Positions 53,227 to 55,480 of a stretch of 64,000 bases of DNA are shown piece after piece. The stretch is taken from contig CANAJP010000004.1 in NCBI GenBank assembly GCA_947361615.1, positions 8,216-72,215 of the forward strand, given 5' to 3'. Made by a program: the position numbers and the translations under genes. This DNA comes from an uncultured Candidatus Melainabacteria bacterium. GTDB taxonomy: Bacteria > Cyanobacteriota > Vampirovibrionia > Gastranaerophilales > Gastranaerophilaceae. The notes below the pieces were generated by a model. It did not search any database. It was not told where the DNA came from and saw only the letters and a program-made list of their open reading frames with translations. The first letter of the stretch is position 1; each line of letters begins with the position of its first letter.

Positions 53227-54114
53227 ATGAGTGAAGTAAGAAAAGAATACACAGCAAGCGACTGTGTTACCCCATCATCCGTTGCCGAAAATATTTGTAA
53301 TAACGTTATGCCCGCAAAAGCAAGCTATGGTAAAATAAAAACTTTAGTTTTAAGTATTGCTGCCGGTGCATTTATTGCATTCGGTGCGCAAGTATCATTA
53401 ACTGTTACAACAGGTTCCGCTGATGTTTTAGGTTTTGGTTTAACAAAACTTCTGGGAGGCCTTGTTTTCGCAGCAGGTTTGATTATGGTAGTTCTTTCAG
53501 GTGCAGAACTATTTACAGGTAACGTTATGATGGCGTTCTCTGTTATCGAAAAGAAAATCAGTTCCTGGCAATTGCTTAGAAACTGGGGTATTGTTTACTT
53601 TGGAAACCTTTTAGGTTCATTGCTTGTTGCTGGTTTGATTTATGCAACAGGATTATGCCACAACTCTCACGAAGAATTGGGCGCATTGGCTATCAATACA
53701 GCATATATGAAGTGTAACCTTACATTCGTTGAAGCGTTTGTAAGAGGTATTCTTTGTAACTGGTTAGTTTGTATGGCTATCTGGATGGCATTTTCAGCAA
53801 AAACTGTTATCGGTAAAATTTTTGCGATTGTGTTCCCTATCACAACATTCTGTGCATCAGGTTATGAACACAGTATTGCAAATATGTTCTTTATTACTAA
53901 CGGTTTGGTTGAAAAATCATCAGAAACTATTGCAGCGGCTTCAATGCTTTCAGCAGATCAGCTTGCAACATTGAACTTAAAATCATTCTTGCTTGGCAAC
54001 CTTGTTCCGGTAACCCTTGGTAATGTTGTCGGTGCGATTGTATTTATCGTGTTGTTATTCTGGACAGCTTACTTAAGACCTGACCACCATAATACAAAAG
54101 AAAATAACAATTAA
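53227..54114 (+). CDS. formate/nitrite transporter family channel (FocA/NirC-like)
   Basis: AGGAG RBS before the ATG at 53227. GAELFTGN, LCNWLVCMA and YEHSIANMF motifs. Confidence 0.88.
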   Translation: MSEVRKEYTASDCVTPSSVAENICNNVMPAKASYGKIKTLVLSIAAGAFIAFGAQVSLTVTTGSADVLGFGLTKLLGGLVFAAGLIMVVLSGAELFTGNVMMAFSVIEKKISSWQLLRNWGIVYFGNLLGSLLVAGLIYATGLCHNSHEELGALAINTAYMKCNLTFVEAFVRGILCNWLVCMAIWMAFSAKTVIGKIFAIVFPITTFCASGYEHSIANMFFITNGLVEKSSETIAAASMLSADQLATLNLKSFLLGNLVPVTLGNVVGAIVFIVLLFWTAYLRPDHHNTKENNN

Positions 54115-54193
54115 AATGAAGCCCTCGCTTGGCGGGGGCTTTACATTTGTAGAAAAATAGTTTAAACTAGGAGTATAAGAAAGGATGGAACTT

Positions 54194-54244
54194 ATGAAAA
54201 AACGTATTGTAAACATTTGCGCAGGGGGGGGGGGGGAGCCCTGA
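54194..54244 (+). CDS. 16-codon mini-ORF ending just after the poly-G tract (MKKRIVNICAGGGGEP)
   Basis: AAGGA lies 8 nt upstream of the ATG at 54194. With 13 G the frame stops at TGA 54242-54244. Confidence 0.3.
   Translation: MKKRIVNICAGGGGEP
54224..54236. repeat. homopolymeric G13 tract
   Basis: gca-GGGGGGGGGGGGG-agcc read directly. Unusual in this AT-rich sequence. Confidence 0.9.
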
Positions 54245-54281
54245 GCCGGTCTTAATTAAAGAATTAGGCGTTACTCCCTCA

Positions 54282-54397
54282 TGTCATGCTGAACTTGTTT
54301 CAGCATCTGTCCCATGTTGCGAACCATTGGGATTTAAAAACGTTGAATACAAAGAGGTACCGTTGGACAGATCCCGAAACGAGTTCGGGATGACAGT
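54282..54397. repeat. MITE-like repeat copy (two inverted half-elements flanking ~52 bp)
   Basis: tgtcatgctgaacttgtttcagcatctgtcc (54282-54312) and tggacagatcccgaaacgagttcgggatgacagtc (54364-54397). Confidence 0.7.
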
Positions 54398-55367
54398 CGC
54401 TGAGCGGCATCCATACACTGGCTTACGGTCAGCGTTTACGATGGCAGAAATTCTGTTATCCCTCACAATCATCGGCGTGGTCGCTGCGATAACGTTGCCA
54501 TCGCTAACCGGAAATATTAACGAGCGGACATGGAACACACAAAGAAAAGCGCTTTATGCAAGATTTTCACAGGCAATGGCACTAATGCCTGCTCTTAATG
54601 GTTATGGAACATTTGTCGCAGCAACAGGTAGTGCATCAGCAGTGGATAATTGTGCGGAAACTTTTGTTACAAGCGGGCTTTCAAAGGTTCTTAAAATTAA
54701 TAATATATGCGATAGCGAGCATTTGGCTGATTGTGGTATCCCTACAAAATTTACAAATTTAGCCGGTAGTCAGATTGGTAGTTTTCCAAAAAATATTGGT
54801 GAAATGAATAGCTTGTTTACAAGTCGAGGTATTGATGGAACAATTAATCCTCAAAAAGATATAGATACTAAAGCGGCAGCGTTTGAAACCCAAAATGGCG
54901 AGTCAATAGCCGTATATTATAATCCAAGCTGTGAAAGTGATATGCAGGAAGTAAATAATGTCTTTGTACAAACTAAAATGTGTGCCAATTTTGTTTACGA
55001 TTTGAACGGAAATAAAGGCCCTAACACTGTGGGCAAAGATATTGGTTTTATTTCGGTTCTTTATTCAAGTGATCCTATAGTTGTTTCCCCATTGCCACTT
55101 ACAAGTGATGTTTCCAATATAGGAACATCTACGAATACAAGTACTCTTTGTAAAACACAGGATGCGGAGAGTCGCGCTCCTAATCGTGATGAACTTTCTG
55201 CCATGTTTTTTAATAAGAAGTTTTTAGGTATAGAAAGAGGTTTGTACTGGTCAACTGCAGTAAAGTCTAGCTCTAATAATATGTGGCACCAAAGTTTTGA
55301 TACAGGACGACGTTATGTTGGAGCTCCTGGTAGTGCCGCATTCCTCAGATGTGTGAAACGAAATTAA
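54390..55367 (+). CDS. prepilin-type N-terminal cleavage/methylation-domain protein with a DUF1566-like C-terminal domain
   Basis: Leader MTVAERHPYTGLRSA, then FTMAEILLSLTIIGVVAAITLPSL. C-terminus ...RDELSAMFFNKKFLGI...YWSTAV...FLRCVKR. The start is uncertain (the tracked ORF uses TTG 54327). Confidence 0.7.
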   Translation: MTVAERHPYTGLRSAFTMAEILLSLTIIGVVAAITLPSLTGNINERTWNTQRKALYARFSQAMALMPALNGYGTFVAATGSASAVDNCAETFVTSGLSKVLKINNICDSEHLADCGIPTKFTNLAGSQIGSFPKNIGEMNSLFTSRGIDGTINPQKDIDTKAAAFETQNGESIAVYYNPSCESDMQEVNNVFVQTKMCANFVYDLNGNKGPNTVGKDIGFISVLYSSDPIVVSPLPLTSDVSNIGTSTNTSTLCKTQDAESRAPNRDELSAMFFNKKFLGIERGLYWSTAVKSSSNNMWHQSFDTGRRYVGAPGSAAFLRCVKRN

Positions 55368-55380
55368 GCAAAACTTTTGC

Positions 55381-55412
55381 AGGGCGGGGCTTTTAAGCCC
55401 CGCCCTCTTTTG
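55381..55412 (+). terminator. strong intrinsic terminator
   Basis: AGGGCGGGGC-ttttaa-GCCCCGCCCT followed by cttttg. Confidence 0.85.
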
Positions 55413-55480
55413 TGTTTGCAATTAAAACATGTTTTATGTAAAATATACCCATTGTAAAAGCTTTATAGAGGACATTTACT

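Follow-up and report, generated by a model that had tools for sequence, protein, structure and literature searches.

A poly-G tract as a candidate phase-variation switch in the leader of a prepilin-type adhesin gene of Candidatus Gastranaerophilus

Repeat tracts that switch the translation of surface genes are known from pilC and opa of Neisseria and from the G-tract genes of Campylobacter and Bifidobacterium, and the mechanism considered here appears, by analogy, to be the same. It concerns a run of 13 G (G13) in front of a gene for a prepilin-type protein in a 64,000-nt stretch of DNA (the window) on contig C4 (CANAJP010000004.1) of a Candidatus Gastranaerophilus metagenome-assembled genome (MAG) of 1.83 Mb, comprising 108 contigs and 95.6% complete. 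Jonsson et al. are said to have described in 1991 a poly-G tract in the signal-peptide coding region of pilC1 and pilC2 of Neisseria gonorrhoeae and N. meningitidis. The likeness lies in a run of ca. 11–13 G within a removed N-terminal part of a pilus-associated gene, where one G toggles translation and the polyglycine is never part of the mature protein. In contrast, pilC is present at one or two loci per genome of Proteobacteria, with a Sec-type signal peptide and no long repeat-built spacer, while the family described here comprises ~80–100 loci with a prepilin (class III) leader in Melainabacteria. The opa genes of Neisseria, about 11 paralogues for surface adhesins, carry CTCTT repeats where the leader peptide is encoded. 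In both systems the paralogous adhesins have separate promoters and a leader repeat switch for every copy, most of them OFF, giving combinatorial surface variation; they differ in that opa has a pentanucleotide repeat, forms a family roughly ten times smaller, and codes for outer-membrane beta-barrels.

Campylobacter jejuni carries poly-G/C contingency genes (e.g., PMC8437040). They number roughly 30 per genome, and mismatch repair of the MutS/MutL type is lacking. The species resembles the present case in being a gut bacterium with a small AT-rich genome and many intragenic tracts gating surface genes; a further likeness is that two AlgX-like O-acetyltransferase genes are also tract-bearing in a closed congener chromosome obtained by HiFi sequencing (the HiFi genome, see below). 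The window's genome differs in having MutS and MutL, tracts of 12–15 instead of 8–11 nt, about three times as many of them, and their concentration in a single paralogous family. In Bifidobacterium breve UCC2003, the sortase-dependent pilus loci bbr_0113 and bbr_1889 contain G10/G11 tracts in the operon's first gene (Penno et al. 2022, PMC9187656). As annotated, both loci are OFF, with one G more than the in-frame length, and omission of a single base turns them ON; omissions exceed additions in vivo, and sequencing reads degrade into G runs past the tract. The work used maximum-depth sequencing and electron microscopy (PMC9187656). Both organisms are gut commensals with a G tract in a pilus gene that is OFF at one G above ON. 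B. breve differs in having two loci, sortase-dependent Gram-positive pili, a tract that splits the structural gene, and experimental evidence, whereas in the window's family the tract lies in a leader predicted to be cleaved and the evidence is comparative. What is new is the lineage, the scale of ~80–100 loci (roughly 45 per Mb), the prepilin leader with in-frame repeat modules, and a strong bias towards one G above the in-frame length (ON+1). Searches of the literature turned up no account of poly-G tracts or of pilin families for Melainabacteria or Gastranaerophilales.

The G13 tract and the reading frame of its leader

The G13 run is the only run of G or C longer than 6 nt in the window, whose mean G+C content is 36.8%; since composition alone predicts ~4e-5 such runs per window (our own arithmetic), its presence is far beyond chance. 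The elements of the locus, all on the + strand, are as follows.

54140..54168, + strand: predicted sigma-70-type promoter, TTTACA-17 nt-TAAACT (consensus scan, 9/12 matches; a prediction)
54180..54185, + strand: Shine–Dalgarno (SD) sequence AAAGGA, 8 nt before ATG 54194 (core AAGGA, 54181–54185)
54194..54244, + strand: leader open reading frame (ORF) in the present G13 state, the OFF product, MKKRIVNICAGGGGEP followed by a stop
54224..54236, + strand: G13 homopolymer, the proposed switch; in frame at G12 or G15, G13 having one G in excess
54237..54434, + strand: spacer of 198 nt, open in the pilin frame only and made of dispersed repeat modules
54432..54437, + strand: predicted prepilin peptidase site, Ala(-1)/Phe(+1) in RSA/FTMAEILLSL (motif read from the translation)
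54435..55367, + strand: mature pilin-like protein, 310 amino acids (aa) plus stop, running from a hydrophobic helix at the N-terminus through a conserved body to a putative lectin-like (Lcl_C/DUF1566-type) domain at the C-terminus

The tract begins 30 nt past the SD-preceded ATG 54194, whose frame passes through it and ends after 16 codons at TGA 54242–54244, 6 nt beyond its end. The pilin frame is open backward through the tract as far as TAA 54210–54212. The distance from ATG 54194 to the Phe codon at 54435 is 30 + 13 + 198 = 241 nt, and therefore G12 or G15 fuses the two frames and G13 or G14 keeps them apart. A further ATG, at 54185, lies in the same frame as ATG 54194 and leaves this arithmetic unaffected. 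Two internal starts are present in the pilin frame, TTG 54327 and ATG 54390, neither of them with an SD sequence. The initial annotation had already named the run at 54224–54236, the AAGGA 8 nt before the ATG, the frame that crosses the tract and stops 6 nt later, the pilin frame open back to 54213, the fusion at G12 or G15, and both internal starts, and the sequence agrees with it on every one of these points.

On this geometry, G13 is quite probably a slipped-strand (replication-slippage) phase-variation switch situated in a translated, disposable leader of a prepilin-type adhesin gene. The best-supported state of the locus at G13 would be OFF, with the loss of one G turning it ON. Transcription would start from the gene's own predicted promoter, and ribosomes would begin at the SD sequence and ATG 54194, translate ten leader codons and then enter the G run. 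At G13 they would leave it one base off register and meet the stop 6 nt on, yielding a 16-aa peptide and no pilin, while the loss of one G during replication (G12) would align the frame of the ATG with that of the 198-nt spacer and of the pilin. The G12 precursor would have an 80-aa cytoplasmic leader, cut off by prepilin peptidase before Phe+1 of FTMAEILL, and because of cleavage at this site the polyglycine and the spacer would be absent from the mature protein. A long N-terminal extension is topologically compatible with a class III signal, as it stays in the cytoplasm and is then cut off. With ~80–100 independently gated paralogues per genome, most of them one deletion from ON, a population would show an ever-changing small subset of lectin-headed pilins, possibly to adaptive ends.

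The tract-bearing pilin family

The same design recurs throughout the window's genome. It contains 81 internal G/C runs of 9–16 nt, with G13 as the mode (40), and 63 of the 81 are preceded by conserved leaders. Forty-eight leaders belong to class 1, GAAAGGATGGAA..ATG AAA AAc aaa nTT GTA AAC ATn Tnn nCA, coding for the peptide M-K-x-[KR]-x-V-x-I-x-x, and 15 to class 2, which is longer (MKxLKPENPCHMALLS); the SD motif, GAAAGGATGGAA...ATGAAA, is kept before most tract-bearing leaders. Anchoring on the N-terminus identified 96 pilin-like genes, 90 of which share 17 identical residues, FTMAEILLSLTIIGVVA. An assembled tract lies no more than 520 nt upstream of 55 of the 96, and among the other 41 a contig end truncates 33. 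In 51/55 no stop interrupts the pilin frame between tract and gene; of the 39 spacers that are 60 nt or longer, 35 lack stops in the pilin frame, compared with 0/39 and 4/39 in the other two frames. The window locus is a typical member, with G13, a 30-nt leader and one G too many (the +1G state).

A closed genome of the genus gives the same picture. OZ007029.1 is a 2.02-Mb congener chromosome obtained by PacBio HiFi sequencing and HiCanu assembly. Its G/C runs of 9 nt or longer total 91, of which 9 are 12, 39 are 13, 28 are 14 and 11 are 15 nt long, four are of 9–11 nt and none reaches 16 nt. Its pilin genes number 98 (~300–330 aa), and 79 of them have an upstream tract, the pilin frame being open back to it in 77/79. 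Spacers, which range from 12 to over 600 nt, are stop-free when at least 60 nt long in 71/73 cases in the pilin frame and in 0/73 and 0/73 in the others; upstream of the 19 tract-less paralogues the open stretches are short. Such frame-specific openness is the mark of a translated spacer, and because long spacers are stop-free in the pilin frame only, ribosomes appear to reach the pilin from the tract side, by way of the SD sequence and ATG and then the G run. The design is also found in the assemblies MOYE01 (Zag_221), CAMUPF, CALUQY, JAZUCM, and JAMPIJ, and 5/7 further species in the genus have the tract-plus-pilin motif. Sequences related to the pilin carry the labels Candidatus Gastranaerophilus, Gastranaerophilales or Melainabacteria, with one MAG mislabelled Fusobacterium.

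In a sample of 61 genomes across the order, G runs of at least 10 nt are abundant in 25/26 genomes of the window's family, typically 20–176 per genome, and number 0–6 per genome in the other nine families; they are thus a family-level trait extending across many genera. Within the window's family one genus is without such runs and others have fewer than 15.

The openness of the long spacers as far as the tract (71/73 versus 0/73) would be left unexplained if the tract acted on transcription, or as an untranslated leader element through spacing or G-rich structure, with the pilin made from ATG 54390 or TTG 54327. This explanation, which we regard as highly improbable, does draw on the existence of the internal starts, on the whole leader RNA being predicted to be strongly folded (z = -3.82), and on the ATGCA that in some paralogues precedes the tract and places an ATG in the pilin frame at +1G, which gene callers use. 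However, the tract lies downstream of the predicted promoter, the SD sequence and the ATG, the internal starts are without SD sequences, ATG 54390 is situated partly in a hairpin arm, and the window locus has no ATGCA. A role in promoter spacing, offered by the initial annotation as an alternative, was rejected, the tract being located 56 nt downstream of the predicted -10 box and beyond the SD sequence and ATG.

In roughly one fifth of the loci the leader ends in ...tATGCA or ...aATGCA at the tract (e.g., L208:601-620, and C12:5842 and C67:3518 of the window's genome). At +1G the ATG of these leaders is in the pilin frame (MQGGGG...), with no SD sequence at the right distance. The window locus has TGCGCA where those paralogues have ATGCA.

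The closed chromosome also bears on the possibility that the tract is an artefact of sequencing or assembly, with a wrong G13 length, or that the gene is a decaying, broken pseudogene, which of all the explanations we credit least. In its favour, database homopolymer lengths are known to be unreliable (PMC9187656), runs of 20–54 G occur at contig ends of the MAG, and 55 of its 216 contig ends have a G/C run of 8 nt or more no further than 120 nt away. The tract of the window, however, lies well inside a contig of 72 kb, such tracts are also present in the closed HiFi assembly and at least six independent assemblies, lengths are confined to 12–15 nt with none of 16 nt or more in the HiFi genome, and the pilin ORFs of ~300–330 aa are intact throughout; a uniform one-base miscall in both Illumina and HiFi data is unlikely. 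The concern raised in the initial annotation, that the run might be a poly-G artefact of two-colour chemistry, falls away, since the same tracts are found in a PacBio HiFi chromosome.

Many contigs of the MAG end in poly-G/C of 20–54 nt, often broken by a single T or C (C1:96924-96986, C4:1-48, C15:1-54). These ends resemble the 'G's end' effect of B. breve (PMC9187656) and are probably a read-through artefact arising after real tracts, separate from the internal ones.

As for the product, its N-terminus, RSA/FTMAEILLSLTIIGVVA, has the cleavage/methylation motif, [G/A]/F-x-x-x-E, followed by a hydrophobic helix (RSA/FTMAEILLSLTIIGVVAAITL). TIGR02532 scores 17.3 bits against a cut-off of 16.3, and Pfam N_methyl 14.4 bits, below its cut-off of 21.2. 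The AlphaFold2 (AF2) model of the mature protein (predicted local distance difference test, pLDDT, 86.2; predicted template modelling score, pTM, 0.84) is confident overall and combines a globular body with two N-terminal helices, residues 3-19 and 25-50, confidence being low at residues 16-25. Its best Foldseek match in the Protein Data Bank (PDB) is the C-terminal domain of Legionella Lcl, 8q4e_A (probability 1.00, E = 1e-3, template modelling (TM) score 0.59 on the target, root-mean-square deviation 2.4 Å across 101 columns), followed by C-type-lectin-like domains; Pfam Lcl_C (PF07603) is weak, 21.8 bits, below the cut-off of 34.9. An alignment of 56 sequences has conserved N-terminal 50 residues and a central CANFxYDLNGxKGPNT block, with variable sequence between them. 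The product is best described as a putative pilin-anchored, lectin-headed adhesin. The window's genome encodes four ATPases of the type II secretion system/type IV pilus (T2SS/T4P) kind (PF00437 over the cut-off, best E 1.7e-127).

The identical 17-aa N-terminus occurs in 90/96 paralogues in the window's genome and in 96/98 in the HiFi genome, and the first 50 residues are nearly invariant among paralogues whose overall identity is only ~55–63%. The invariance of the 5' end of the pilin genes suggests either very strong constraint or concerted evolution by gene conversion.

Tract length and frame states across loci

Natural alleles of different length, both ON and OFF, occur in the family. The syntenic locus after focA, the gene upstream of the pilin in the window, carries G13 in the window, an OFF state; Zag_221 has G12 there (ON), and the HiFi genome G14 behind a leader of 32 nt (OFF), while the contigs of two further congeners stop at the tract. 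The spacers of the three loci are 198, 72 and 183 nt long, respectively, the 126-nt difference between the window and Zag_221 being divisible by three. A paralogous pilin locus located upstream of focA in the HiFi genome's species has G12 in ERZ21549420 and G13 in ERZ21549450, ERZ21549430, and OZ007029.1, with 0 mismatches and 0 gaps in 550 + 1700 flanking nt. Moreover, protein clusters at 90% identity mix full-length ON forms (MKxxxVxIxxGGGG...) with OFF truncations from different samples, the ON forms starting at the upstream ATG (MRKQSVTICTGGGG..., MKKRNVSILSGGGG...) and the truncated calls beginning inside the spacer. All this evidence comes from assemblies, in which homopolymer calls can err, and a purely technical origin of the variation seems unlikely given its recurrence across independent strains. 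A comparison of tract length in relatives, proposed in the initial annotation, has yielded G13, G12 and G14 at the syntenic position and G12 versus G13 at the sister-species paralogue. The slipped-strand contingency geometry suggested there is strengthened by its recurrence genome-wide and in at least six other assemblies, the closed HiFi one included, and by these differences in length.

The frame state of each locus was reckoned from the SD-linked ATG.

Window's genome: one G too many, 43; in frame, 7; two too many or one too few, 4
HiFi genome: one G too many, 54; in frame, 5; two too many or one too few, 19
Five other assemblies: one G too many, 23; in frame, 5; two too many or one too few, 2
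Pooled, ~162 loci: one G too many, ~120; in frame, 17; two too many or one too few, 25

The pooled shares are ~74% for +1G, ~10% for in frame, and ~15% for the other out-of-frame state. The main toggle appears to be 13 <-> 12, because nearly all in-frame proteins on public record have GGGG, corresponding to G12 where the leader is 30 or 33 nt long. The modal tract follows the leader phase, with G13 at 30/33-nt, G14 at 29/32-nt, and G12 at roughly 49-nt leaders. The ON+1 excess fits a state in which most copies are off in most cells, base losses from long tracts outnumber gains, and lengths are confined between in-frame values.

The same excess (43/55 loci in the window's genome, 54/79 in the HiFi genome, 23/30 in the others) can be read in favour of programmed recoding, in which +1G would be the working state and low constitutive expression would result from RNA polymerase dropping a G or from ribosomes shifting by +1; GGAGGTGGCGGA(+1) would be a non-slippery counterpart with the +1 frame offset. 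We consider recoding rather unlikely. It is supported by the modal tract length keeping to the leader phase (G13, G14, G12), by a 13-nt run exceeding the length of the RNA–DNA hybrid, and by neither genome having a tRNA-Gly(CCC), GGG being the rarest Gly codon (12.5%); without that tRNA the run would be wobble-decoded and perfect re-pairing after a shift would be allowed. Genuine in-frame DNA alleles in nature argue against it, as does the other out-of-frame state, seen at ~15% of loci, where the correction would have to run the opposite way. A conserved stimulator, whether a stop codon, a hairpin at a fixed distance or an internal SD sequence, was not found after the tract, the first stop in the ATG frame being located 5–92 nt past it. 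The link between length and phase is partly trivial, as an A-to-G change at the edge of the tract turns a 30-nt leader with G13 into a 29-nt one with G14, lengthening the run with the frame unchanged, and as independent evidence for selection on frame it was partly discounted. In B. breve, finally, the ON+1 resting state was ascribed experimentally to replication slippage (PMC9187656).

Recoding on four GGG codons would be a dimmer rather than an on/off switch, and it could coexist with slippage in DNA; some in-frame product from G13 by a ribosomal +1 shift or transcriptional slippage is plausible. A two-tier arrangement combining dimmer and switch, with ~60–70 pilins per cell made at a trickle by recoding and DNA slippage adding full-ON variants, seems to us about as doubtful as recoding by itself, and the same low standing goes to its account of a family of ~90 members whose leaders would have taken up dispersed palindromic repeats as modules that stay in frame. 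The window's genome and the HiFi genome have just two tRNA-Gly genes, with the anticodons GCC and UCC. GGG is the rarest Gly codon, yet in-frame leaders need four of them in succession.

Several observations weigh against slipped-strand switching of a disposable prepilin leader. In-frame loci (17 of ~162) are far below the one third expected by chance, and the +1G skew (~120/162) could mean expression without any change in DNA. The G12 allele of ERZ21549420 comes from an Illumina assembly, where a homopolymer miscall is possible. A pattern of exact flanks with a variable gap had 0 matches for the window locus in metagenome contigs, and no record matched the window's pilin product exactly, whether it was taken from TTG 54327 or from ATG 54390. 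The Logan contigs DRR519815, DRR519818, and SRR31563893, which have an identical iPGM or FocA, break at the tract or at the conserved pilin N-terminus; these breaks are uninformative on heterogeneity, because the 31-mers there are shared with paralogous leaders. Across these searches the window locus had no second assembled copy that crosses the tract. MutS and MutL are both encoded in the window's genome, and therefore slippage is not raised by loss of mismatch repair and mutability would rest on tract length alone. On the protein side, the residue at -1 is Ala at the window locus, with Gly in many paralogues, and the leader at G12 would be 80 aa long instead of the short basic leader of typically 5–30 aa. 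To our knowledge, the characterised prepilin leaders are all far shorter than 80 aa. A prepilin peptidase (PilD, Peptidase_A24 / A24_N_bact) was not found in the 95.6%-complete MAG; PilD with both domains is present in 7/7 other genomes of the genus, the closed one included, and its region is probably unassembled in the MAG.

The worry of the initial annotation that a long fused N-terminus would not suit prepilin processing is weakened, as leaders of 20–150 aa or more are usual across the family and are kept open, and in-frame full-length forms occur in public assemblies. Slippage at G13 in a leader that is translated and then removed remains the probable reading.

The orientation of the tracts may bear on the direction of slippage. 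By cumulative GC skew, replication of OZ007029.1 starts near 1.78 Mb and terminates near 0.82 Mb; the G run is on the leading strand in 78/88 tracts of at least 11 nt, and the pilin genes are co-oriented with replication. On the same chromosome tracts also occur outside the pilin family: a G15 (1284953-1284967) and a G13 (1287775-1287787) are situated at the 5' ends of two adjacent minus-strand genes for AlgX/AlgJ-type SGNH O-acetyltransferase-like proteins of ~430 aa each (Pfam ALGX, DHHW), and the same mechanism would thus gate probable polysaccharide-modifying genes as well. A G10 run is located within a giant ORF of ~2,900 aa at 181256.

The surrounding unit and its meaning for the family

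The features flanking the switch and those within its spacer are listed below.

53227..54114, + strand: formate/nitrite transporter (FocA-like), the upstream neighbour (Pfam Form_Nir_trans, E 4.7e-75)
54121..54140, + strand: GC-rich hairpin after focA, gccctcgcttggcgggggc, read from the sequence; likely terminator
54286..54306, + strand: hairpin module 1, ATGCTGAA-CTTGT-TTCAGCAT (left arm also given as GTCATGCTGAA)
54371..54391, + strand: hairpin module 2, ATCCCGAA-ACGAG-TTCGGGAT
55381..55406, + strand: intrinsic terminator of the pilin gene (11-bp stem, 9 GC pairs, T tail)

focA lies outside the switch and served as the synteny anchor for the loci of congeners. The hairpin that follows it is likely a terminator isolating the pilin unit; a simple terminator scan did not call it, and Zag_221 has an equivalent hairpin at the same place after focA. 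The GTTTAAACTA block of the promoter region is also conserved in the Zag_221 orthologue. In the closest relative, whose FocA is 96% identical (G001, contig C6:35165-39088), the iPGM gene directly follows focA, in contrast to the window, where 54115-55480 intervenes, which suggests that the whole ~1.25-kb unit of promoter, leader, tract and pilin is a presence/absence cassette between conserved housekeeping genes.

The spacer would, at G12, encode the distal part of the 80-aa prepilin leader. The 3' arm of its module 2 includes the first two bases of the internal ATG 54390. Each hairpin module occurs in ~91–98 copies in the window's genome, BLAST matches to the modules being located in pilin leaders (72) and elsewhere (104); within leaders their insertion always keeps the pilin frame open. 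Judged by sequence, the spacer modules look like a dispersed repeat similar to miniature inverted-repeat transposable elements (MITE) or repetitive extragenic palindromic (REP) elements. A scan of the leader against Rfam at permissive E-values gave chance-level matches only, and no riboswitch or leader RNA was recognised.

The tracts have practical consequences, as they fragment short-read assemblies and cause gene callers to truncate or split pilin genes. Metagenomes sequenced PCR-free or by HiFi could show the pattern of ON and OFF loci (the 'phasotype') directly, so that selection on individual adhesins would become trackable in hosts, and the ON+1 excess is a quantitative pattern usable to test models of contingency loci. 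Gastranaerophilales are widespread uncultured gut relatives of cyanobacteria whose interaction with the host is essentially unknown. The ~80–100 genes coding for putatively lectin-headed pilins amount to roughly 5% of a 2-Mb genome, and if each of them is gated by its tract, these commensals would invest heavily in stochastic variation of surface adhesins, a strategy familiar elsewhere chiefly in pathogens of mucosal surfaces, Neisseria and Campylobacter among them.

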